A stretch of DNA of 64,000 bases from an uncultured Anaerolineales bacterium. GTDB taxonomy: Bacteria; Chloroflexota; Anaerolineae; Anaerolineales; UBA11858. A program made the position numbers and the translations under genes. The stretch spans positions 5,936 to 69,935 of the forward strand of contig CAYWIC010000002.1 in NCBI GenBank assembly GCA_964458115.1. Reading direction: 5' to 3'. The notes below the pieces were generated by a model. It saw only the letters and a list, made by a program, of their open reading frames with translations, was not told the origin of the DNA and ran no database searches. Every line of letters starts with the position of its first letter. Within the stretch, counting starts at the first letter, position 1. Below, piece after piece: positions 818 through 61,483 of this stretch.

Positions 818-2275
818 ATGTACGTGAAAATTAGTGAGATGCAATTTCGGATGATACTCCATGAATTGATTGCCATCGTTGGGAAGGAGCATGTCATCAC
901 ACCAGAAGCCGACCGCACTGTCTACGGCGTGGATGTTTATTGGGCGCCGCGGTTGATGATTGACCGGGGAAAATTGCCTCCCCTCGGGGATGTGATCGTC
1001 CTCCCTGCAAATACTGAGCAAGTTTCGGCGATTGTAAAGCTGGCCAATATCTATCGTATTCCAGTGATTCCCTGGGGGGGCGGTTCTGGTTCTCAGGGCG
1101 GCATTATGCCCATGTATGGCGGCATCATGTTGGATTTAAAGCGCCTCAATCTGATTACTGAGATTAATGATATTGCTGGTACGGTCACAGCTCAGGCGGG
1201 CATAAATGGATATGAGTTAGAGAATGCCCTCAACGCAGCCGGTTGGACATTGCCGCACTACCCGGCTTCGGTTCATTCTGCAACCCTGGGTGGGTATCTG
1301 GCATGCCGGGGATCTGGTACCGTCTCGACGAAATACGGCAAGGCCGAGGATATGGTGCTTTCGATGCAAGTGGTTTTGCCCACTGGTGAAATTATTCAGA
1401 CCTTGCCGGTTCCCAATCATGCTGCTGGTCCTGGCATCTTGCAGTTGTTTGTAGGAGCCGAGGGCAGTTATGGCATCATCACCGAAGTTACCATGCGCCT
1501 GGAGCGCCTGCCAGAAGTGCGCCGCTTCCGCTCATTCTTGTTCCCAGATATGGGTGCCGGACTGGATGCCGGGCGCAATATCATGCTAGACCGCTTACAG
1601 CCCCTGGTGATCCGCCTATATGACGAGCGCGCCACCATCAAGACCGTGAAGCGTGTGCTCGGACAGGATGTCGATTCAGGTTCGTATATGGTGATTGGTT
1701 TCGACGGCTTTGAAGACATCGTTGATGCCCAGGAACGCCATGCTTTCGAGATCATTGATCGCTATGGTGCAGAAGATCTGGGGGCCGAGGCCGGCCGAAA
1801 TTGGTGGGAACACCGCTACGATTTCTACTTCCCACCCAAGGTTTTAGATTTCCCCTGGATGTTCGGCACCCTGGACACTGTGGCCACCTTTGACAAGTTG
1901 GAACCACTCTACTGGGCCAAGAAGGAAGCCCTGGAAGAGGCCTATAAAGAATGGGATCTGTTTTACTACGCTCATTTTTCGCATTGGTATTTGTGGGGAG
2001 TGATGGCCTACGACCGCTTCATTATCGAGAAGCCTCCCGAAAATCCCGACGAAGCGCTGGCCTTACATGATGAAGTCTGGAACCTGGCCGTAAAGGTCAA
2101 CCTGGAATATGGTGGTGTGATCAACGAGCATCATGGCGTGGGATTGAAACTGTCCCGCCATGTACGGGAACAGTTTGGTGCTTCATTCCAGGTTCTCGAA
2201 GGATTGAAAAATACCCTCGATCCCTACCATTTGATGAATCCTGGCAAGATGGGTTTTGGGCCTCCGCGATTATAA
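818..2275 (+). CDS. FAD-binding oxidoreductase (GlcD / alkyl-DHAP-synthase-like, FAD-linked oxidase family)
   Basis: PWGGGSGSQGG FAD loop, HYPASVHSATLGGYLA, GAEGSYGIITE, C-terminal NEHHGVG and MNPGK. Confidence 0.88.
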   Translation: MYVKISEMQFRMILHELIAIVGKEHVITPEADRTVYGVDVYWAPRLMIDRGKLPPLGDVIVLPANTEQVSAIVKLANIYRIPVIPWGGGSGSQGGIMPMYGGIMLDLKRLNLITEINDIAGTVTAQAGINGYELENALNAAGWTLPHYPASVHSATLGGYLACRGSGTVSTKYGKAEDMVLSMQVVLPTGEIIQTLPVPNHAAGPGILQLFVGAEGSYGIITEVTMRLERLPEVRRFRSFLFPDMGAGLDAGRNIMLDRLQPLVIRLYDERATIKTVKRVLGQDVDSGSYMVIGFDGFEDIVDAQERHAFEIIDRYGAEDLGAEAGRNWWEHRYDFYFPPKVLDFPWMFGTLDTVATFDKLEPLYWAKKEALEEAYKEWDLFYYAHFSHWYLWGVMAYDRFIIEKPPENPDEALALHDEVWNLAVKVNLEYGGVINEHHGVGLKLSRHVREQFGASFQVLEGLKNTLDPYHLMNPGKMGFGPPRL

Positions 2276-2285
2276 CGGTGTAATC

Positions 2286-3389
2286 ATGAGTCGATTATTA
2301 GAACATCAACAAGCCTTATATGAACTACGCTTCTCACCGATGTGCAGACCGGCCGCCGAAGTAGCCAACTTCACGCAGCTAGAGAGCCACTCTGTGCGCT
2401 CCCGCACGATGATCATGTGGCGAGTTTGCGCCGGCCACCTGACATGGGGGCCGCGTGAAGTGGAGCTTCTTTATGAATCCACATTGGACAGCATCAGCGA
2501 AGCCTTCGATGTATTCCATTACCCCGTTAGCCAGTATATGCTGGACGCCCGGGCGGATGTTTGGGAAGCGGGGTTGGCCCCACAGAATGTAAAGGATGTC
2601 GTAAGCAGCGCATCCGAGAAATCGGTTGACGCGCTACCCAAAGCCAGCGCAGATGTGCTGCTGCTGGGCGGTGAGATCGCCCAAGCGGAAGGGGCTGACT
2701 TTTCGGAGACGCTCACTAATAAATTGCCTGATATTCCTCTTTGGGTTACCCCAAGCGGCGTGCTGCCTTATGTCCTGGGCGCTCAAGATATCGCCAGGGC
2801 GCAGGCCGAGGTGATCGTAAATGGCATCCAGGAATCGGGTGCCAAAACGGTCATCGCCGATGGACCTGAAACCGCCTGGGGATTGACGAAAGTATTTCCC
2901 ACGCTAGGTGTTGACCTGCCCAATGGCGTGCAAGTGCAATTGCTATCGGACTATCTTGAGAAGAATGTGGAGGTCAAGAGTAAAGGTACTGTCAAAACGA
3001 TGGTGCATGACAGCCGTCCGGCTTGTCTGATTGCCGATGAACTGCCCAATCACCTGGCCGTGATGCCTGGCTATCTTGAAGATGAAGCTGTGTTTGGCAA
3101 GGGTCTGGTTTTCGACGCTCCCCGGCAGATCGTTGATGCCCTGGGTGGGGAAAGGGTGTATGGTGCCTGGACGCGTTGTCTGGCGAAAACTTGCGGCGCG
3201 GATGACGGGTTATGGCTGACTTATCCTGACCTGGCCAAGGGCTTAGCCTGGCAGCGGTTGGCTTATGCCAAAGAGCTGGGGGCCGAGAAGATCGTCGCCG
3301 ATTCGCCATTGTGCGCGGCATATTTGTCTGCTCAGGCTGGTGAAGATGATCCCGCAGTTTATTGGCTGCCAGAATTGGTTTTGGCATAG
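2286..3389 (+). CDS. GlcF/HdrD-like (Fe-S)-binding/CCG-domain protein with most Cys ligands substituted
   Basis: Degenerate ferredoxin motifs (LRFSPMCRPAAE; YESTLDSISEAFD) and CCG remnants (HDSRPAC, KTCGADDG, ADSPLC). Directly follows the FAD oxidase. Confidence 0.7.
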   Translation: MSRLLEHQQALYELRFSPMCRPAAEVANFTQLESHSVRSRTMIMWRVCAGHLTWGPREVELLYESTLDSISEAFDVFHYPVSQYMLDARADVWEAGLAPQNVKDVVSSASEKSVDALPKASADVLLLGGEIAQAEGADFSETLTNKLPDIPLWVTPSGVLPYVLGAQDIARAQAEVIVNGIQESGAKTVIADGPETAWGLTKVFPTLGVDLPNGVQVQLLSDYLEKNVEVKSKGTVKTMVHDSRPACLIADELPNHLAVMPGYLEDEAVFGKGLVFDAPRQIVDALGGERVYGAWTRCLAKTCGADDGLWLTYPDLAKGLAWQRLAYAKELGAEKIVADSPLCAAYLSAQAGEDDPAVYWLPELVLA

Positions 3390-10536: not shown

Positions 10537-10582
10537 GCAAAAAAACTCGAAGGAACAACTCAATCTCAAGGAGAATAGCCCG

Positions 10583-10631
10583 AAAAATAGGTGTGCAGGG
10601 GGCGCAGCGCACCCCATGCACACCTATTTTT
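10583..10631. repeat. Long intergenic palindrome (family A, copy 1)
   Basis: AAAAATAGGTGTGCA...TGCACACCTATTTTT arms around GGGGGCGCAGCGCACCCC. Confidence 0.9.
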
Positions 10632-10676
10632 TGGAAATTTTCTCTCGAAGTAATATACTTTTCTATGAAAGCATAT

Positions 10677-13525: not shown

Positions 13526-13712
13526 GTGGACTGTGGAAATACGTTTAGAGACCGCGAATGTAGCTCAGGAAAGTGCCGGGATTATCAGCTTCGCTTCCCT
13601 ACCAAAAGCAGTTCGCGGTCCTCTTTACGAGTTTGAAAAAATCCAAGCTAATCATACATCATGACTAATTGGTTGGCATGCTGACCATGGACAACATTGC
13701 CTTGGAAGTTGG

Positions 13713-13763
13713 CAGCTATGGAGGTATAGGGCGTGCGGAGCACGCCCTATACCTCCATAGCTG
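13713..13763. repeat. Long intergenic palindrome (family A, copy 2)
   Basis: Perfect 24-bp stem CAGCTATGGAGGTATAGGGCGTGC-GGA-GCACGCCCTATACCTCCATAGCTG. Confidence 0.95.
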
Positions 13764-14069
13764 GAATTCACCACAGGAAATCCCAGACTCCCAAGGCGCA
13801 TAGTATCTTTGTAAACTGGGAAGGGGATTTAATATAGGCGTTTCAGGAAACGCCGTGAAACTACCCAGATTTAGGGGAGCCCCCGAAAATTCTTATAGAC
13901 CCATAATCAAATGTTCACCAAATGATTTATTAATCATGTAAAATTGATTGGATAGAATTGAGCGCAGCCCAATTTCCAACATCTATTGCTAGCTATCTTG
14001 AAGCTCAGATCTCCGTCAACTTGTCAGACGGGGAAATCTAATGAGTTTTTACAAAGTGAGAATTATTCG

Positions 14070-16823: not shown

Positions 16824-16919
16824 TTATTGAATTTAAGATTGATCTTGAAACTATCGGTGAAAGAAAAAAGGAGTGTGAGTGGAGCTCACAATCCTTTTTC
16901 CTTTGGGTTTATGAATAAA

Positions 16920-26539: not shown

Positions 26540-26621
26540 CGGTGCTCCTTTGGATCTCCACTAATGTGTTGATAAATTAGTTCTAGCTGATTTGGGTCTT
26601 AGGGAAACATCGTGAGACTAT

Positions 26622-26674
26622 CCAGATTTAGGGGTGAGTGGGGTACGGAGCACCCCACTCACCCCTAAATCTGG
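26622..26674. repeat. Long intergenic palindrome (family A, copy 3)
   Basis: 23-bp stem CCAGATTTAGGGGTGAGTGGGGT / ACCCCACTCACCCCTAAATCTGG, one A.C mismatch, C-GGA-G loop. Nested in an outer imperfect IR at 26589-26708. Confidence 0.95.
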
Positions 26675-26724
26675 GGGATCACCCTGGCAATCCCTAGAGA
26701 ACCAAATCTTCGTATCTTAGTGGT

Positions 26725-30680: not shown

Positions 30681-30801
30681 AGCGCATCCCTGTTTGGTGA
30701 AATAAATTTGAAAAAGACTCCAGGCTAAATGATATTCTCGAGCCTATCAAATTGACACGACCCCAGGGTGTTATTTGGCACCCCTCTTAAGTATGGTATA
30801 T

Positions 30802-30850
30802 GGAAAAAACACTTGCTAATTCGCGGAGCGGGGGAGCAAGTGTTTTTTCC
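30802..30850. repeat. Long intergenic palindrome (family A, copy 4)
   Basis: GGAAAAAACACTTGCT...AGCAAGTGTTTTTTCC around a GCGGAGC core. Confidence 0.85.
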
Positions 30851-30873
30851 AATGGATTATGTGCGAAAACGGT

Positions 30874-32655
30874 TTATGGCGCTTCGGGCATTGGATGCGC
30901 AGCGAAGAACTCCCAGATCAGGTCGTTTACAGTAACAGCAGGCTCGAATCCTCCACCGCCAAACGTCGTTGTGGGCCAGTTATGGCCATCCAAAGCCAAA
31001 GAATATAGAATCACATCGCTATCCTCCTCGCACCCTGGCCAGATGTCTGTTGTGATCACACCACCCTTGGATACGCTCTCGACTTCGGGCGAGCAGCCAT
31101 TCCTTTCCGCCCAGGCCGCAGCCCAAACGGGAATTTCTGGCACATTGACGACCCCCTCATGGTCTGTCCCCTCGTAGGGAATGACCTCGTCTCGCAGCCC
31201 ATGAAATGAGATCACCGAGATTGGCCGATCGGGGTGGCAATCTTCCCAGTAATAGTACGCGCCTCCAACAGGAGCTATCGCTGCGATTGCCTCGGAAAGG
31301 TCACACCCCAAGCGGTTTGCCATGCCACCGCCATTCGAGAAGCCTACTGCGAAAATGCGTTGGGGATCGATGCTCAGGTGGCTATTCAGATAAATAATTA
31401 AATCCTCGACAAATTGGACATCATCGACATCGGATTGAGATTCCGCCTCGGGCAGGTCTTCCCAGGTTGTGGGTGAGCCTGTTGCCTGGGGGTACGCGAC
31501 AATGAACCCGTGCTGGTTGGCAAGCGGGTTGAGTTGGAAATATATCTCAGCGTCGAACGCATTGGAGCCGCGCCCGTGGAAGACCAGCACCAATGGCATC
31601 AAGGTGCCTTGTTCATAACCTGGTGGGATGTGCAGCTTGAAGGTGCGGTCGTGTTCACCCGAAGAGATCACATCGAAATAGTCACCTGAGACAGGGTATG
31701 CAGTCTCGGAAGCTTGAGCGGTTGTATCTGGTGCTTGCACTTCAGCCAGGCTGGTTTTTGGGTGGGCGACGAAGAAATCCCAGATGACCTCGGTGGCATC
31801 CATGGCCTGGGTGGTTCCGTTAATTTCGATAGCGAACTCGGATCCCGGCCATGAGTGCCCGGCATCGGCAATGGAGTAGAGCGCTACCAGAGTATCTCCG
31901 CGGCACGCCTCCCAGGATTCCAGAGTGAGTACATCGCTAAGGCGTTGGGTAGTTGGAACGATATTACAACCATCCCGTTCACCCCAGGCTTCAACCCAAT
32001 CGTGAACCAGGGGGTTGTTCTGGTTACCCTCGTAAGGGATGATCGAATCCAAGAGCCCGTGGATGGCCAGCACCGAAACCGCGTATTGCGCTTCGCAATC
32101 GTAATAACCAACGTGCCCGCCAGAGACAGACGCGACAGCCGCTAAAATGTCCGAGCGTGAACAGGCTAGCCGGTTGGCAAAGGAGGCGCCATTCGAAAAG
32201 CCCGTGGCATAGATTCGGGTCGAGTCGATATTGAGTTCTTCCTGCAGGTGTGCCAATAATGCATCGAAGAAGGCCATATCGGGGTCGCCGATCTCGGTAG
32301 GGACTGCGCCCCACCAGGTGGGCGGATTGTCGATTGCTTGGGGCGCAACTACCACAAACCCAGCTTCATCGGCCTTGGCGTTCATCTGGGTCATCGCTTG
32401 TTGCTGAACGGCGGTCGCTGTGCGGCCGTGGAGGTTGAACACCAATGGTATCGCGTTCTCAGGCTGATAGCCGGGGGGAATATGTAACAGGAAGATGCGT
32501 TCTGTGCCATCAATGTCCAAAGTTTCAGAATAGTCGCCGGGTCCTGTGTATTTGCTTGGGGTTGGTGAAGGGGTAGGCTCCGCTGGGACCGCGGATGGGC
32601 TGCAGGCAGTCAAGGCTGCTATAAAAATGAGGAGGAATATTGTTGTGTATCTCAT
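30874..32655 (-). CDS. Tandem two-domain PHB-depolymerase/LpqC-like esterase lipoprotein
   Basis: Lipobox LTAC; two domains each with LHG/FHG, GFSNG, GHxWP. Confidence 0.88.
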   Translation of the reverse strand: MRYTTIFLLIFIAALTACSPSAVPAEPTPSPTPSKYTGPGDYSETLDIDGTERIFLLHIPPGYQPENAIPLVFNLHGRTATAVQQQAMTQMNAKADEAGFVVVAPQAIDNPPTWWGAVPTEIGDPDMAFFDALLAHLQEELNIDSTRIYATGFSNGASFANRLACSRSDILAAVASVSGGHVGYYDCEAQYAVSVLAIHGLLDSIIPYEGNQNNPLVHDWVEAWGERDGCNIVPTTQRLSDVLTLESWEACRGDTLVALYSIADAGHSWPGSEFAIEINGTTQAMDATEVIWDFFVAHPKTSLAEVQAPDTTAQASETAYPVSGDYFDVISSGEHDRTFKLHIPPGYEQGTLMPLVLVFHGRGSNAFDAEIYFQLNPLANQHGFIVAYPQATGSPTTWEDLPEAESQSDVDDVQFVEDLIIYLNSHLSIDPQRIFAVGFSNGGGMANRLGCDLSEAIAAIAPVGGAYYYWEDCHPDRPISVISFHGLRDEVIPYEGTDHEGVVNVPEIPVWAAAWAERNGCSPEVESVSKGGVITTDIWPGCEEDSDVILYSLALDGHNWPTTTFGGGGFEPAVTVNDLIWEFFAAHPMPEAP

Positions 32656-32682
32656 GAAATTTTCCTTAATCGAGTTATCGCC

Positions 32683-32713
32683 TTTTCCCGGAATCTCACA
32701 ATTTCCGGGAAAA
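32683..32713. terminator. Intergenic inverted repeat
   Basis: TTTTCCCGGAA-N9-TTCCGGGAAAA between two esterase genes. Confidence 0.5.
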
Positions 32714-32723
32714 TATTCGGTGG

Positions 32724-33677
32724 TTACTCTGATCCAACAAATCTCTTTGGATGGGATTTAAAAAAATCCCAAATGATATCAGTGGCGTACACATCAGGAG
32801 CGGGACCGTCCAGGTAGGGACCTGGCCCAAACCCTGAGCCAGGCCAGACGTGACCGCCACCTTCAATGCTGTAAAGCACCACAGTTGCATCCCCGGTGCA
32901 ATCTTCCCAGGATTCCACTTTGATGGCTGCCTGGGACTGTTCGGTCTCAGGCGTCAAAGCACATTGATTGCGCTGTGCCCAGGCTGCCACCCAGGCAGGG
33001 ACCGATGGAAGATAACCTCCATCTCCCAGGTATGGAATGATGTGGTCTTCGGTGCCATGGATAGCCAGCACAGCTACCGGGAATGCTGGCTCGCAGGTCT
33101 CCATTTGCGGATGGGCGCCCGCGACCACGGCGATAGCGGAGATCTTCTCTGACATCACACACGCCAGGCGATTGGCCATGGCCCCGCCATTTGAGAAGCC
33201 AGTCACGTAAATCCGGGCAGGATCGATGCTGTGCTGACTTTCCAGAGTGGCGATCAACTCTTCAAAGAATACCAGATCTTCCTGACCCTTTGGTCCTGGG
33301 GCTGGCCACCAGGTTGCTGGCTCTCCCAACGCCTGGGGAGTGACAACGATGAAGCCGTGTTGATCTGCCTGAAGGCTCATTTGGCTGATCTGATCATGCT
33401 GGGCGATGTCACTGCCGCGCCCGTGCAGATTGAGCACCAGAGGGTGGGGTACGCCAGACTGATATCCGGCAGGTATGTGGGTGACAAACTCCCGGTTGGT
33501 TCCGTTCACGCTGAGCGTTCCATAGTGATCCCCCGGCGGACGATGATATTCCTTTGGGATGGGAGTGTATGCTGGCTGCAGTGTAGCGATTTTCGAGGTG
33601 CTTTGGCATCCAAACATGCAAGAGCAAGCCCATGCAATGATGAGTAGTACTGGCAAATGAAGTTTACTTTTTATCAC
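32724..33677 (-). CDS. Single-domain PHB-depolymerase/LpqC-like esterase lipoprotein
   Basis: NLHG, GFSNGG, HGTED, GHVWP. N-terminal signal ending ...MFGC. Confidence 0.88.
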   Translation of the reverse strand: MIKSKLHLPVLLIIAWACSCMFGCQSTSKIATLQPAYTPIPKEYHRPPGDHYGTLSVNGTNREFVTHIPAGYQSGVPHPLVLNLHGRGSDIAQHDQISQMSLQADQHGFIVVTPQALGEPATWWPAPGPKGQEDLVFFEELIATLESQHSIDPARIYVTGFSNGGAMANRLACVMSEKISAIAVVAGAHPQMETCEPAFPVAVLAIHGTEDHIIPYLGDGGYLPSVPAWVAAWAQRNQCALTPETEQSQAAIKVESWEDCTGDATVVLYSIEGGGHVWPGSGFGPGPYLDGPAPDVYATDIIWDFFKSHPKRFVGSE

Positions 33678-33766
33678 TATCCTTTTTACCTGATCCGCAA
33701 GTATTAATCAAATTTCTGTCATCCTGAGCCGCCCAATCCGCTTCAAGTGCGTAACTCCGTATTGTT

Positions 33767-35578
33767 TCACTCTTCAGAAGACCGTGGGTTTGCCTCGAAG
33801 AACTCCCAAACCACATCCGTGGCGTTGATCTGAGATTCGACATTCTCGCGGAAAACGGCCACTGAGGAGCCTGGCCAGACATGCAGACCACCAATGCGAG
33901 AGATCAACTGGACAGTGACATCCTCATCACACCCCACCCAAGTTTCGATCTTGAGCGATGGGTCTGGATGTTCGACCTGGGGTTCGGGTTGGCAGCCGTT
34001 GCGTTGAGCCCAGTACTCCACCCAAAGGTGTACCGGAGGGACTTCGTCCCCGCGGCCTTCGTAGGGGATGGTGGGATCATCCGTGCCGTGAATGACCAGC
34101 ACAGAAACAGGACGCTCGATATTGCAGTTGGCGAAGTCGGTGTGACCGCCTGCTATCGGGGCGATTCCGGCAAAGGTCTCAGACATGAAGCAGCCCAGAG
34201 CATTGCTCATGGTGCCGCCGTTGGAAATTCCCGTAGCGTAGATGCGCGCCGGGTCGATATTGATCAAGGCTTGCAGATAGGCCATCAGCACCACAAAGAA
34301 ATCCTTATCAGCTTGGCCGTGAAGCCCTGGCAGCGGACCATGCCAGGAAGCAGGCTCTCCCAGGGCTTGCGGGTGAACGACGATAAAGCCTTCTTGATCG
34401 GCTTTGGCGTTCATACTTGTATATTCCTGCTGGTCGAACATGGTGCCGGTATAGCCATGCAAGTTGATCATCAGAGGTGTGGGGATTTCGGGGTCGTACC
34501 CGAGGGGGATGTGGACCGTGAACCAGCGCGTATAGCCATCTACGGGGAGCATATCGACGTAGTCGCCGGGATTCTGATAGCGGGCCAATAATACAGGATC
34601 GATGGTCGGTTCGGAGATGACGATATCGGACTTGGGATGCGCTTCGAAGAATTCCCAGATCACATCAGTAGCGTAAAGGTCGGGTTCCAGGCCAGCCTCG
34701 TAGGGACCAGGTCCGTAGGCTGAGCCGGGCCATTCGTGCAGCCCGCCCTTGACGGTGTAAAAGGTCACCAGGGAGTCTCCCGCACAATTACTCCAGGTTT
34801 CTTGTAGAAAGTCTTGATTGTCCTGGTCGATGCTGGGGGACAGATCACAGCCATTTGATTCGGCCCACGCTTCCACCCAGTCATGAACAGCCGGTGTATT
34901 TCGTTGCGCGTCCCCCTCAATAGGGATCGTGCCGTCATCTGTACCATGCATCACCAGCACCGAGACCGGCTTCTCCAACAGGCAGCCCCCGGAATGGGCA
35001 TTCCCGGCCGCGATGGGCGCGATAGCGGCGATCTTGTCAGACAGGATGCAGCCTAGATGGTTGGTCATCGTGCCGCCGTTGGAGATCCCGGTGATGTAGA
35101 TGCGGGCGGAGTCAATGCTCATCTCCTCGCTAAGATATTCGATCATCTCCTCGAAAAAGTGATTGTCATTGGCACTGGCTGGGCCGGAGACGGGGCCCAA
35201 CCAGGTGGCCGGTTCGTGCAGCGCTTGGGGGTAGACCAGCAGGAAGCCCGCCTGGTCGGACTTGGCGTTCATGTGGCTGCGGTTGGCTTGCCCGTGAGCC
35301 GACCCGCCAGCCCCATGCAGATTGAATAGCAGGGGAGTGAGTTCGCCGGGCTGGTAACCGGGCGGGACGTGCAGCAGAAAAGTGCGCTCCATCCCATATA
35401 CCGTGATGACAACGGTGTAGTCACCGGGGATCTGGTATTGTTGGACAATCTCGGGAGTGGTGTTTGGTTCCATGTGGGACACTTCTGTCAGCGGTTCTTC
35501 CAAATCATCAGTTGGGCTACAACCGGAAAGGAATAAAATTGCGATGCAGAGAATGATGATCAATGATTTGTGATTCAT
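33767..35578 (-). CDS. Tandem two-domain PHB-depolymerase/LpqC-like esterase lipoprotein
   Basis: Lipobox LSGC; two GISNGG nucleophile motifs, HGTDD x2, LHEWP/LHVWP. Confidence 0.88.
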   Translation of the reverse strand: MNHKSLIIILCIAILFLSGCSPTDDLEEPLTEVSHMEPNTTPEIVQQYQIPGDYTVVITVYGMERTFLLHVPPGYQPGELTPLLFNLHGAGGSAHGQANRSHMNAKSDQAGFLLVYPQALHEPATWLGPVSGPASANDNHFFEEMIEYLSEEMSIDSARIYITGISNGGTMTNHLGCILSDKIAAIAPIAAGNAHSGGCLLEKPVSVLVMHGTDDGTIPIEGDAQRNTPAVHDWVEAWAESNGCDLSPSIDQDNQDFLQETWSNCAGDSLVTFYTVKGGLHEWPGSAYGPGPYEAGLEPDLYATDVIWEFFEAHPKSDIVISEPTIDPVLLARYQNPGDYVDMLPVDGYTRWFTVHIPLGYDPEIPTPLMINLHGYTGTMFDQQEYTSMNAKADQEGFIVVHPQALGEPASWHGPLPGLHGQADKDFFVVLMAYLQALINIDPARIYATGISNGGTMSNALGCFMSETFAGIAPIAGGHTDFANCNIERPVSVLVIHGTDDPTIPYEGRGDEVPPVHLWVEYWAQRNGCQPEPQVEHPDPSLKIETWVGCDEDVTVQLISRIGGLHVWPGSSVAVFRENVESQINATDVVWEFFEANPRSSEE

Positions 35579-35641
35579 TGTAAGTGTCCTTTCTAGTGTC
35601 AATATTGTTGGAGCAGAGGAACTCCTGTGGTATGGGATATC

Positions 35642-35690
35642 CGCTGGAATATGGGGGTGATGGCGTAGCCACCACCCCCATATTCCAGCG
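35642..35690. repeat. Long intergenic palindrome (family A, copy 5)
   Basis: CGCTGGAATATGGGGGTG-A-TGGC-GTA-GCCA-C-CACCCCCATATTCCAGCG. Confidence 0.93.
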
Positions 35691-36942: not shown

Positions 36943-37060
36943 GCGAGTCAGAACACTCAAACTTTCGGCACCGAAGCTGCACTAGGAATTGCCGGAGTGA
37001 GACTTTTTTATCGATCTTGCGTATACATCAACGAGGATCACGCAAGATACCAAATACATC

Positions 37061-38606: not shown

Positions 38607-38693
38607 CCCTCACCCTACCCCTCTCCCATTGGGAGAGGGGACAAATAGGGATATTGCAACTCCCTCTCTTTAGGGAGATGGCAGGGGTGAGGG
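38607..38693. repeat. CCCTCACCC...GGGTGAGGG palindromic repeat (family B)
   Basis: CCCTCACCC-TA-CCCCTCTCCC-ATT-GGGAGAGGGG ... GGGTGAGGG. Confidence 0.88.
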
Positions 38694-44070: not shown

Positions 44071-44829
44071 TCAGGGGCTCAATTGGACATTCAATACGAT
44101 ATCACGTACGCCAGCCCAGATGGGACTGCCAGCAGCGTCCATGCCCTCGACCAGGCTGATGATCAAATGCTGTCCCTCGCCACCAGTTTGGGTAAACATG
44201 GCCTCGTTGAGAAGGTCATCGTCGCCCTCGAAGTAAAATTGAGTGGTGAGAATCTCTTGGGCATTGTACTTGATCTTGACGTGGATATGGCGCGGGCGCG
44301 GCTCGTACCTGCCTGGCAGAATAGTTCGGAAATTGTAATTCCCATCCTCATCTGTGATCGCTTCACCATAGAACTGAAAATTCGGATCGCGCCGACTCGT
44401 GCCGGGGTCATTAGGATGTAGATATACGCCATTGCTGTCTGTCTGCCAGATTTCGATGACCACATTGGGAACGGGAATCCCATTGGCATCATAGACCACC
44501 CCTGAGAATTCGATCGCTTCACCTTGGGGGAGGCCATCCGCTCCATCAAAGTCTATGAGATCGTTGTCCCTGTCTTCCGGCTTGTCCACCGGATAATAAG
44601 GTCCCTCGGCTTGAGGGGGGGTGAAATAGGTTACCTCGATGGATTCCGGTGTCGATTGAGGTGTGTCCGGAGATTCCAAAGAGACCATGATCTCTGTGGG
44701 AATGGTTTCTGAGGGTGTGGGTGCGGTTTCCCTGCCAATAGACTGGCTGGTAGTGATCACGTTTTTTGCGCAACCTGCTAGTACAAGAGCAAAAAAAAGC
44801 GTAATTGTTTGGATATTGTATGTTTTCAT
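44071..44829 (-). CDS. Intradiol ring-cleavage dioxygenase-like lipoprotein
   Basis: Lipobox LAGC; EGPYY, EIWQTDSNGVY, RTILPGRY, RPRHIH (2 Tyr + 2 His iron ligands). Confidence 0.85.
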   Translation of the reverse strand: MKTYNIQTITLFFALVLAGCAKNVITTSQSIGRETAPTPSETIPTEIMVSLESPDTPQSTPESIEVTYFTPPQAEGPYYPVDKPEDRDNDLIDFDGADGLPQGEAIEFSGVVYDANGIPVPNVVIEIWQTDSNGVYLHPNDPGTSRRDPNFQFYGEAITDEDGNYNFRTILPGRYEPRPRHIHVKIKYNAQEILTTQFYFEGDDDLLNEAMFTQTGGEGQHLIISLVEGMDAAGSPIWAGVRDIVLNVQLSP

Positions 44830-44859: not shown

Positions 44860-44920
44860 TTGACAATTTAGAAAAAACTAATAGAATTAGCTAAAACTAA
44901 TAATGTTAGAAAAAACTAAT
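44860..44920 (+). promoter_or_regulatory. Sigma70-like promoter with three 15-bp operator-like repeats
   Basis: TTGACA 44860-65, TAGAAT 44882-87; TTAG(AA/CT)AAAACTAAT at 44868, 44887, 44906 (19-bp period). Confidence 0.7.
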
Positions 44921-44932
44921 CATATTAGAAAT

Positions 44933-45568
44933 ATGACTGATGAATCTTCCCCCACAAGATTGACCCGCCGCCAGCGCAATCACGAAGCCATGAAACAGAC
45001 CATACTCGAGACGGCGCGCATGATCATGCGTGCTGAGGGTGTGGCTGCGCTGACCATCCAGGAACTGGCCCGCCGCCTCGAGATCCGCCCGCCCTCGCTG
45101 TACAACTATTTCAAGGGGAAGATGGATATCTACGATCACCTGTTTCGGCAGGGATTCGAGTTGTTTGCTAGGACCATGCAGGCGGTGGGAGATACATCAG
45201 AAACTTATTGGGATGATATGCGCCTGAGCATGGAGGCCTATATGAGTTTTGCCCAAGAAAACCCAGAGTTATTCCAGCTATGTTTTGAGCGCCACGTGCC
45301 TGGTTTCGAGCCCTCTGAGGAAAGTATGCAGGTTGCTAATCAAGCGCGCGAGATTTCAGCCACGCGGATTGCTGCTCTCATAGAAGGAGGTGATTTCGTC
45401 CCGCGAATACCCTTTGAAAAAATGTTTTATTTAGTTTTTGCGCTTATGCATGGGCTCACAGCCCTGCATCTGGCCAATGAGCCGCAGCTTCCCCAGGGTC
45501 AGGGCAGGTACGGCAGTTTGATTCCCGAGGCTGTTGAGGTTTTCGAAAAGGCCTGGAAATACGACTGA
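44933..45568 (+). CDS. TetR/AcrR family regulator (WHG-like C-terminus)
   Basis: GVAALTIQELARRLEIRPPSLYNYFKGK; ALMHGL. Confidence 0.92.
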   Translation: MTDESSPTRLTRRQRNHEAMKQTILETARMIMRAEGVAALTIQELARRLEIRPPSLYNYFKGKMDIYDHLFRQGFELFARTMQAVGDTSETYWDDMRLSMEAYMSFAQENPELFQLCFERHVPGFEPSEESMQVANQAREISATRIAALIEGGDFVPRIPFEKMFYLVFALMHGLTALHLANEPQLPQGQGRYGSLIPEAVEVFEKAWKYD

Positions 45569-46216: not shown

Positions 46217-46270
46217 GTGAAAAAATAGGCGTGTGCGGCGCTTTGCGCCAGCAAGCACCTATTTTTTCAC
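46217..46270. repeat. Long intergenic palindrome (family A, copy 7)
   Basis: GTGAAAAAATAGG...GGCGC-TTT-GCGCC...CCTATTTTTTCAC between convergent genes; may also terminate transcription. Confidence 0.88.
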
Positions 46271-50924: not shown

Positions 50925-51003
50925 TATGTGTATGATTATATAATATATTAAAATATTATATGATCATATTACCGTTAAAGATGATGTCTGTCAAGTGGTG
51001 TGA

Positions 51004-51056
51004 CCAGATTTTGGCGTACATGGGGTGATCCGTATTCTATGCACGCCAAATTCTGG
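51004..51056. repeat. Long intergenic palindrome (family A, copy 8, degenerate centre)
   Basis: CCAGATTTTGGCGT...ACGCCAAATTCTGG plus the conserved tail GGGATCACCCCGGCAATTCTTAGAG. Lies between divergent genes. Confidence 0.85.
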
Positions 51057-51232
51057 GGGATCACCCCGGCAATTCTTAGAGCAACCGCAATATTCAATAT
51101 AGGTAAATGCATTGCGCGATATACTTGAAGATCGGAGCATCATTGTTGATGTTACGGCATTCATTCGATATTGAAGCTTTCTGCGGATACGGTAGTGAAA
51201 GTTGCTATTCGCTGAAATGAAAGGGAACCAAA

Positions 51233-57670: not shown

Positions 57671-57764
57671 TTCGATCTCCTTATATGACAAATAGGATAA
57701 TATCTATCCTATAATAACACAAATGTTACATTTTTGGTTCTCTGGGAATTTCATGGTGAACTCA

Positions 57765-57813
57765 AGATTTGAGGATAAGGGGTGTGCGGAGCACGCCCCT
57801 TATCCTCAAATCT
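57765..57813. repeat. Long intergenic palindrome (family A, copy 9)
   Basis: AGATTTGAGGATAAGGGG-T-GTGC-GGA-GCAC-G-CCCCTTATCCTCAAATCT, inside outer IR 57736-57843. Lies between divergent genes. Confidence 0.95.
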
Positions 57814-57877
57814 ACTCACTTCCGCGGTGATTCCTAGAGAGCCTACATCTTTGGCGTGCGATCATAGAAATGTTTAG

Positions 57878-61432: not shown

Positions 61433-61483
61433 AAAAAAATGGGTGCGTGAAAGCGCAAAGCGCTTTCACGCACCCATTTTTTT
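61433..61483. repeat. Long intergenic palindrome (family A, copy 11)
   Basis: Perfect 24-bp stem AAAAAAATGGGTGCGTGAAAGCGC-AAA-GCGCTTTCACGCACCCATTTTTTT. Confidence 0.95.

Follow-up and report, generated by a model that had tools for sequence, protein, structure and literature searches.

What kind of element carries conserved outer inverted repeats around hairpins whose stems differ from copy to copy? This question is raised by positions 26589-26708 of a 64,000-nucleotide stretch of DNA from an uncultured Anaerolineales bacterium (contig CAYWIC010000002.1, positions 5,936 to 69,935; hereafter the window), where an earlier note had seen a nested, non-autonomous mobile element, its outer ends enclosing variable inner stems. 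As detailed below, positions 26595-26703 are very probably a copy of a non-coding miniature inverted-repeat transposable element (MITE) of about 108 nt, which derives from an insertion sequence (IS) of the ISL3 family of Anaerolineales and most likely depends on that IS for its movement in trans. The copies make up a new MITE family of a known, ISL3-derived type, in an uncultured lineage.

The strings quoted in the earlier note all lie where it had placed them (26589-26708, 57736-57843, 51057-51086 and 13865-13901), the focal ends reading GATTTGGGTCTTAGGGA at 26589-26605 and TCCCTAGAGAACCAAATC at 26691-26708. Comparison with other copies places the family boundaries at about 26594/5-26703, and the outermost GATTT/AAATC, which falls outside them, is specific to the focal locus. 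The intact copy at 26595-26703, to which no strand is assigned, is covered by the family profile over 26592-26705 (nhmmer, E 2e-34) and has two arms, left and right, on either side of a central hairpin. The left arm (26595-26634, plus strand; TCTTAGGG...CGTGAGAC...CCAGATTTAGGGG) is of the left inverted repeat (IRL) type, homologous to the left terminal repeat of the IS, and is matched by a profile of MITE arms at 26594-26640 (E 1.9e-9). The right arm (26662-26703, minus strand; GGTTCTCTAGGGATTGCCAGGGTGATCC...) is of the right inverted repeat (IRR) type, homologous to the right terminal repeat, and is matched at 26703-26656 (E 1.1e-10); both arms are collinear with IS termini. The central hairpin (26622-26674) has a perfect stem of 23 bp, in which 26622-26644 pairs with 26652-26674 as an inverted repeat of 100% complementarity, and a 7-nt loop, ACGGAGC. 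No open reading frame (ORF) of at least 100 aa lies within 26595-26703. The focal copy is 93% identical to the consensus of copies from the metagenome-assembled genome (MAG) CAYTKR01, a 109-nt palindrome, and a 128-nt stretch at this copy is predicted to fold into one long hairpin on either strand (-74 and -75 kcal/mol, z about -10). Its right tail is common to 26675-26703 and 51057-51086, and a tail 25-mer with three degenerate positions occurs twice in the window as compared with no occurrence in 100 shuffles. An apparent strand bias, with the G-rich arm first on the plus strand, was dropped because a perfect palindrome reads alike on both strands and carries no strand information.

The focal copy belongs to a large family, whose termini were found again flanking hairpins in six or more related genomes as well as in two other metagenomes. 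The closest relative of the window among species-representative genomes is the uncultured Anaerolineales MAG CAYTKR01, which is syntenic with it at approximately 88-93% nucleotide identity and in which the right tail alone identified 11 loci. A looser pattern, consisting of an arm and the start of the stem, identified 96 stretches, about 50 of them in the MAG CAZUSV01 and the others in four further Anaerolineales genomes; its matches in unrelated phyla were close to the chance expectation. In the loci collected for the family searches (numbered L below; 2.2 Mb in total), the family profile gave 94 non-overlapping matches, 62 of which were near full length. Those copies that have both ends measure 107-111 nt, and GGYTCTYTRGGAAT and its complement stand at both ends of 40 copies. 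All copies are intergenic, some lying between divergent genes. A first scan of metagenome contigs with the right tail gave no match, and a second scan found further copies from two more projects. The sequencing runs that contain the window are marine or seawater metagenomes, and in these the contig depth reaches 50-800 over 26590-26705, compared with 3-8 in the single-copy flanks, with more than 100 element-bearing contigs per run. No family member was found in about 75 more distant Anaerolineales genomes, sampled around the gene for the NAD-dependent DNA ligase LigA (about 1.3 Mb), and the family is therefore confined to a clade. Its copies, which number from dozens to hundreds, are dispersed over a small set of uncultured Anaerolineales from the sea.

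That these copies are non-autonomous mobile elements, as the earlier note had proposed, is upheld by their dispersal, by target-site duplications (TSDs), by empty sites and by homology to an IS. Element boundaries and duplications are both definable, the former enclosing about 108 nt and the latter spanning 8-9 bp. Among 40 two-ended copies, a direct repeat of 8-9 bp abuts the ends without mismatch in 8, with one mismatch in 17 and with two in 5. At most one mismatch is thus present in 25 of the 40, compared with 0.1% of mismatched flank pairs, in which the left flanks were combined with the right flanks of other copies. Perfect 8-bp TSDs were also found at L194, L195 and L199, all from the Joint Genome Institute (JGI) data set Ga0154795. 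The inverted-looking flanks of L002, L003, L005 and L007 were considered as a sign of insertion into pre-existing, locus-specific palindromes, a candidate explanation that was rejected: most of them are direct 8-bp duplications whose targets happen to be partly self-complementary, or chance resemblances.

Two orthologous sites provide a comparison of filled and empty states. At site B (57736, upstream of LigA), both the window and CAYTKR01 (L020 2652-2759) are filled. In the window, the 108-nt element lies between the direct repeats TACATTTTT (57727-57735) and TACATCTTT (57844-57852), which match at 8 of 9 positions, and the TSD in CAYTKR01 is TTCATTTAT. The same site is empty in L024 and L028 (82% and 80% LigA identity), each of which has a single copy of the target. 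At site A (26595), the corresponding genes of L016-L019, which are 72% identical to the window in the neighboring esterase, are separated by 12 nt as opposed to 185 nt in the window. The copy on L010 was considered as syntenic with site A and was set aside, as the synteny is not exact.

The source of the mobility was sought in a transposase with matching ends, and such an enzyme was found outside the window, in an ISL3-family IS. Within the window, no transposase was found among 50 ORFs scanned against Pfam; no IS-sized pair of terminal repeats with duplications appeared in the first 1.5-2.2 Mb of loci, and self-comparison of the clade loci returned synteny only. Two candidates were rejected: a 5-kb insertion in L021 holds ordinary genes, and a solo end in L157 is a truncated MITE copy. 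On L193, a contig from the second metagenome scan (Ga0209642_10028170), a truncated MITE abuts an IS of 1391 bp (1882-3272) that is bounded by identical inverted 14-mers, GGCTCATTGGGAAT. Its ORF (1964-3232, 422 aa) matches PF01610 (DDE_Tnp_ISL3, E 1e-69) and PF14690 (Zn_ribbon_ISL3, E 9e-8). Metagenomes hold 6,421 homologues of this transposase at E <= 1e-30, the best 120 of which are 75-99% identical to it, and they typically lie on contigs of about 1.4 kb, as is expected for a multi-copy IS. In the genome collection, this ISL3 group is almost restricted to Anaerolineales and 'Chloroflexia' MAGs.

Relatives of the IS at 16 loci have terminal repeats of about 43 bp, with the left end GGCTCATTGGGAATCNCCGTGGTACCCGCCAGATATGGGGGTAG, and perfect 8-bp duplications flank 8 of them. 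The repeats of the Anaerolineales members read GGCTC(A/T)(T/C)T(G/A)GGAAT...CCAGATATGGGGG, and in an alignment the MITE arms are collinear with them through CCAGATTTAGGGG. Moreover, a profile built from 99 MITE arms alone matches the IS termini with E-values of 2e-8 to 1e-5 (in 91 kb), and at the left ends the match spans all 43 positions. The IS on L201, with TCTTTGGG as its left end and TCTCTAGG as its right end, displays the same asymmetry as the left and right arms of the MITE. The two elements also keep company, the MITE adjoining the IS on both L193 and L203, a 131-kb contig, and an IS that is about 88-90% identical to that of L209 reaches a depth of 140-200 in runs X1-X3, which also contain the window's genome. 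ISL3 elements have been described as having repeats that start with GGCTCTTCG and 8-bp direct repeats (PMC6305408, PMC11448079); the present family has the 8-bp duplication, repeats starting with GGCTCT, and a partner transposase in DDE_Tnp_ISL3. Separately, a second and unrelated transposase (DDE_Tnp_1) lies at L203 4008-5078, 1 kb upstream of the ISL3 copy and the adjoining MITE, and this region is a small cluster of mobile DNA.

Judged by this alignment, the outer shell is the terminal repeat of the IS, and the lower part of the inner stem, its first 13 or so base pairs (CCAGATTTAGGGG), is part of the same repeat, which leaves the inner 12 bp or so and the loop as the only MITE-specific part. 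The inner hairpin is thus not a separate insert, because shell and stem base are together collinear with a single IS repeat of about 43 bp. This finding bears on the nested architecture, in which the hairpin would be a unit of its own, mobile or cassette-like, that enters the center of a pre-existing palindromic shell, itself mobile. At site A, the window has shell and core, while the CAYTKR01 ortholog (L013) and Logan contigs have the shell only, exactly 58 central nucleotides being absent; a further shell-only copy lies at L004 285-345; the two species have different cores at orthologous site B; and there are free hairpins without arms, such as that at L021 3582-3655, which have a similar grammar and the GC-GGA-GC apex. 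All of these speak for a mobile core. Yet the core is not separable at its base, where it belongs to the IS repeat, the duplications surround the shell and not the core, and no family core was found in unrelated flanks in the 2.2 Mb. In addition, L002, L011, L010 and window positions 13838-13902 have kept some of the stem and have their junctions at short G-runs, which is what deletion predicts. Since such partial-deletion copies exist, the shell-only copies are better explained by loss of the center, and the junctions, which differ among the centerless copies (L013, L004 285-345, L002, L010, L011 and window 13838-13902), fit independent deletions of a hairpin-prone center. A nested unit is therefore quite unlikely, and that part of the earlier description is not sustained, shell and stem base being one IS terminal repeat.

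The central stem nevertheless has properties of its own. As the earlier note had stated, the outer ends are conserved while the inner stems differ, and this is borne out across the family, whose stems vary widely between copies. The usual core is a 25-bp stem with a GGA or TCC triloop; among 60 near-full-length copies, this stem is perfect in 26, has one mismatch in 11 and has two in 9. Relative to two major consensus stems, 33 types of variant are mirrored on both arms and are mostly singletons, while 31 types affect one arm, mostly in the first and last five stem positions. When 39 cores are aligned without gaps, 97.3% of the cells pair and 16 of the 25 pairs have changed on both sides (121 cells), with cores of more than three mismatches excluded, which inflates the percentage paired but not the covariation. 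None of 500 shuffles reaches this level of pairing and covariation, and slid controls are nowhere near it. Wobble pairs occupy only 4 of the 975 cells, and transversions are no less readily mirrored than transitions. The triloop is GGA in 19 copies and TCC in 17, so that in about half of the copies its orientation is reversed with respect to the arms. If the pairs that close the loop are included, the apex is GCGGAGC (in some copies GCGTAGC), which fits the d(GCGNAGC) mini-hairpin, a structure that is extraordinarily stable as DNA (PMC13037366, PMC3201870).

Another reading is that of a family of structured RNA genes or transcription terminators, in which the repeat would be kept for a functional hairpin in the transcript rather than by transposing. 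The very stable predicted fold and the intergenic position of every copy agree with this possibility, and the same genomes use long hairpins with A-run and T-run flanks as probable bidirectional terminators. However, both strands fold equally well, some copies lie between divergent genes, and no T-run follows the focal stem (26622-26674), the next sequence being GGGATCACCC. Rfam 15 gave no match at the gathering threshold in the window, and its E-value mode returned sub-threshold models resembling microRNA precursors only. The scarcity of G-U cells and the random orientation of the loop argue for a constraint at the level of DNA, and the duplications and the IS homology would be left unexplained. 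Three metatranscriptomes of the same study, which hold no reads or contigs on the MITE, are uninformative on this point. An RNA-based origin is thus very unlikely.

Because G-U intermediates are nearly absent, transversions are mirrored like transitions, and the loop flips freely, a DNA-level process is favored over selection acting on an RNA. In inverted repeats, template switching by a polymerase has been documented to homogenize the arms and to invert the spacer between them (PMC8604942, PMC7202029), and the pattern of variation suggests that it is probably the cause of the mirrored stem changes. The likeness to those quasipalindromes lies in the homogenized arms and inverted spacer, which correspond to the mirrored changes and GGA/TCC flips of the MITE cores; the difference is that homogenization was described there at single loci and in experiments, whereas in the MITE it is inferred across some 40-60 copies. 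The chief alternative, which counts against template switching and has perhaps half its likelihood, is selection for hairpin integrity among transposing lineages, each of which was sampled once. A more far-reaching proposal, which can be offered only tentatively, is that the stem is kept perfect in situ by efficient arm-to-arm copying on a DNA hairpin or cruciform, or else that the hairpin is a required intermediate or cofactor site in transposition by the ISL3 group. Should in-situ copying be correct, the many copies of the family would document, in nature and in an uncultured bacterium, the correction of stems and the inversion of spacers by template switching; should the hairpin be required, the mechanism of the ISL3 family would gain a new feature.

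A sequence of events that would produce these elements can accordingly be proposed. The arms, which extend over about 43 nt between GGYTCTYTRGGAAT and CCAGATTTAGGGG, are IS terminal inverted repeats, with the left and right types mirroring the left and right repeats of the IS. Joined head to head through the MITE-specific center, the two arms make the whole element one long, hairpin-forming palindrome. By analogy with the family, a DDE transposase would bind both terminal repeats and insert the MITE at cuts staggered by 8 bp, which would generate the target duplication of 8, and occasionally 9, bp. After insertion, copies would decay by deletion of the hairpin-prone center or by point mutation. 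Within the 25-bp stem, mismatches would be resolved by intramolecular template switching between the arms, as the variation suggests; this would either erase a change or copy it to the other arm, and would also flip the 3-nt loop. The expected outcome is an element whose outer ends are conserved and whose inner stems are perfect but differ between copies.

Several observations weigh against derivation from, and mobilization by, this IS. The focal copy has no recognizable TSD, its flanks CTGATTTG and AAATCTTC mismatching at 6 of 8 positions, and the same is true of its ortholog L013 and of some few further copies; the earlier note, which had seen no duplication, was correct in this respect, though not for the copy at 57736-57843 with its 8/9 direct repeat. 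The IS repeats and the MITE arms are approximately 70-80% alike by eye, not identical. A transposase scan of the MAGs CAYTKR01 and CAZUSV01 gave no match, possibly because multi-copy ISs are lost from bins of short-read data; the IS was found in related MAGs and in metagenomes. Run X4 has the MITE in abundance, but the IS is barely seen there. Finally, at site B the left flanks of the window and CAYTKR01 are 95% identical and the 64-nt right spacers 80%, but the elements are only 70% identical, having different cores and right arms of different type between the same flanks and the same duplication. This mismatch fits neatly neither simple vertical descent nor simple insertion, and could have arisen by any of three candidate routes: divergence in situ with homogenization of the arms, conversion from other copies, or replacement.

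Besides the focal copy, the window holds several further members of the MITE family, at a density of approximately one copy or remnant per 9 kb; strand is assigned only to the last of those that follow. The second intact copy (57736-57843, ending in GGTTCTCTGGGAAT at 57736-57749 and ATTCCTAGAGAGCC at 57830-57843) has a divergent core, with its hairpin at 57765-57813, and is matched by the family profile at E 3.6e-23 (nhmmer) and by the arm profile at E of about 2-3e-8 for both arms. A degenerate copy at 13683-13795 (nhmmer E 5e-20) has decayed terminal repeats around a hairpin (13713-13763) with a perfect 24-bp stem and a GGA loop, and its right arm (13764-13795) is recognized by the arm profile at E 0.019. 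Nearby, a centre-deleted copy at 13838-13902 has its left arm, up to CCAGATTTAGGGG, joined straight to a decayed right arm (arm profile E 7.7e-7 and 0.032, respectively; blastn 13846-13877, 91%). The tail-like fragment that the earlier note had placed at 13865-13901 is therefore present, though not as a lone tail: it is the right half of this copy. At 50978-51087, a copy with a decayed left arm (nhmmer E 1.7e-21) has a variant hairpin that is imperfect (51004-51056), followed by a right arm of canonical sequence (51057-51086, E 6e-4). A probable remnant at 35608-35690, recognized by eye only, consists of a hairpin (35642-35690, loop GTA) and a decayed left arm, GGAGCAGAGGAACTCCTGTGGTATGGGATATC (35608-35641), without a right arm; the base of its stem, CGCTGGAATATGGGGGT, resembles the IS terminal repeat CGCCAGATATGGGGGT by eye, profile searches not being significant. 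The ACCACAGGA..TCC tails that had been noticed on copies 2 and 5 of the earlier numbering are decayed arms (13764-13795 by profile, 35608-35641 by eye). Lastly, a short arm fragment on the plus strand at 36980-36995, CACTAGGAATTGCCGG, is a probable remnant (blastn 19 nt at 95%; arm profile weak, E 0.46).

Several other hairpins that the earlier note had counted as copies do not belong to the family, being terminator-like and having no significant arm match. The hairpins at 10580, 16860, 30801, 46217, 61433, 40580 and 60073 gave no significant match to the arm profile; those at 10580 and 60073 show a weak resemblance to the core. Five of them (10580-10634, 16860-16904, 30801-30851, 46217-46270 and 61433-61483) have G+C-rich stems of 17-26 bp with A-run and T-run flanks, lie at gene ends, and have a G-rich 5' arm in every case. 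The hairpins at 16860 and 30801 have orthologs in a related genome, where the position is kept and the center of the hairpin has diverged. These A-run/T-run hairpins are probably bidirectional intrinsic terminators, fast-evolving and outside the MITE family. Downstream of an aminotransferase gene, the window (61433-61483) and L021 (3582-3655) have unrelated perfect hairpins at the same position in two species, and the L021 hairpin has a MITE-like apex, GTGC-GGA-GCAC, followed by GGGGATCC, which resembles the start of a MITE right arm. Free hairpins of this kind may be what remains of MITEs, or the derivation may run the other way. In a MAG from the Black Sea, a long hairpin upstream of LigA (L023 9870-9940) has three tandem GGGTGTGCGC units in its left arm as against two in its right, and beside it lies a tiny remnant of terminal repeats only (GGTCTCTCACGGGAGTTCCCAAAGACC).

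The genomic setting of these copies is unexceptional. The window has a G+C content of about 50%, its genes are metabolic and housekeeping genes, including those for LigA, a P-type ATPase, ABC transporter parts and dehydrogenases, and a search for tRNAs in it gave no match. A JGI metagenome contig of 5.1 kb is 99.96% identical to part of it. Three adjoining esterase-like genes at 30874-35602 (593, 317 and 611 aa), which have repeated blocks in common at 60-86% identity, form a paralogous cluster, which is also present in L013, a related genome. What looks like an operator array is found at 44868-44928, where three 19-nt units (TTAGAAAAAACTAATAGAA-like) stand in tandem; a dioxygenase gene (44071-44829, minus strand) and a TetR-family gene (44903-45568) diverge from this region. 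An imperfect inverted repeat, CCCTCACCCTACCCCTCTCCC ... GGGAGATGGCAGGGGTGAGGG, with a spacer of 45 nt, occupies 38607-38693 between an amine-oxidase-like gene and a phytoene/squalene synthase gene.

For the lineage itself, the family has practical consequences. Many MAG contigs end inside the MITE, which breaks short-read assemblies, and its recognition should make this poorly known lineage easier to assemble, bin and annotate. In several CAZUSV01 copies (L116 305-442, L176 4170-4294, L184 2416-2467 and L166 2186-2260), 15-25 G followed by C replace the central stem; these centers are probably artefacts of short-read assembly at the hairpin. Insertion of a MITE between genes that were once 12 nt apart may also affect operon expression. 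More generally, the family is tied to an ISL3 group that is widespread in Anaerolineales and has terminal repeats of unusual length, and its central stem, with numerous independent substitutions mirrored on both arms, offers a clean natural data set on the upkeep of perfect inverted repeats, which are otherwise accessible mostly through reporter constructs.

How, then, does this family compare with known systems? The Correia elements of Neisseria and the ERIC/IRU elements of enterobacteria are likewise intergenic, about 100-150 nt long, and fold as one long hairpin. They have other termini and targets, Correia elements duplicating TA, and no known sequence relation to this MITE.

A second comparison is with the repetitive extragenic palindromic (REP) elements and REPINs, which raises the alternative that the present element is of the REP/REPIN type and spreads as single-stranded DNA by means of a RAYT, an HUH tyrosine transposase, with the hairpin as its recognition structure. 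The MITE is indeed palindromic, intergenic and high in copy number, and in a study of REPINs both arms are said to co-vary. The regular 8-bp target duplications found here speak against this alternative, as REPs are not known to duplicate their targets. Furthermore, the terminal repeats are homologous to those of a DDE (ISL3) IS, and no Y1/HUH transposase domain was found among the 50 ORFs scanned against Pfam, a search that covered the window alone and not the whole genome. The 25-nt arm is not self-complementary and is not in itself a small palindrome with a GTAG tag, its consensus having TTAG or TTGG, with GTAG in a minority variant only. The REP/REPIN-RAYT system (PMC3733652) is similar in its short, intergenic, multi-copy palindromes, in the correlated changes of its arms, and in an outer palindrome around an inner hairpin, and longer palindromic repeats that enclose REPs are on record, a Chloroflexi genome being among those that have them (PMC3733652), which counts in favor of the alternative. 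Yet REPs have stems of 5-13 bp, a GTAG or CGTC tag and an HUH transposase, as opposed to the 25-bp stem, DDE-IS ends and 8-bp duplications of the MITE, and a REPIN-type origin is extremely unlikely.

Close parallels are found among the ISL3 elements. ISArsp7, with repeats GGCTCTTCGCGG... and an 8-bp direct repeat (PMC6305408), resembles the present family in termini that start with GGCTCT, in the 8-bp duplication, and in the PF01610 transposase with ISL3 zinc ribbon that the autonomous relatives of the MITE encode. It differs in that the MITE of the window has no gene, and the ~43-bp repeats of the Anaerolineales resemble those of other ISL3 members in the first six bases only. The ISL3-derived MITE of Microcystis aeruginosa (PMC11448079) is similarly non-autonomous and multi-copy, with ISL3-type repeats, 8-nt direct repeats and a predicted stem-loop. 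However, it belongs to another phylum, it measures 187 nt compared with about 108 nt here, and it shares no similarity beyond GGCTCT. Unlike the Microcystis element (PMC11448079), the Anaerolineales MITE is one single palindrome, with a perfect 25-bp center and a triloop of the GNA type.

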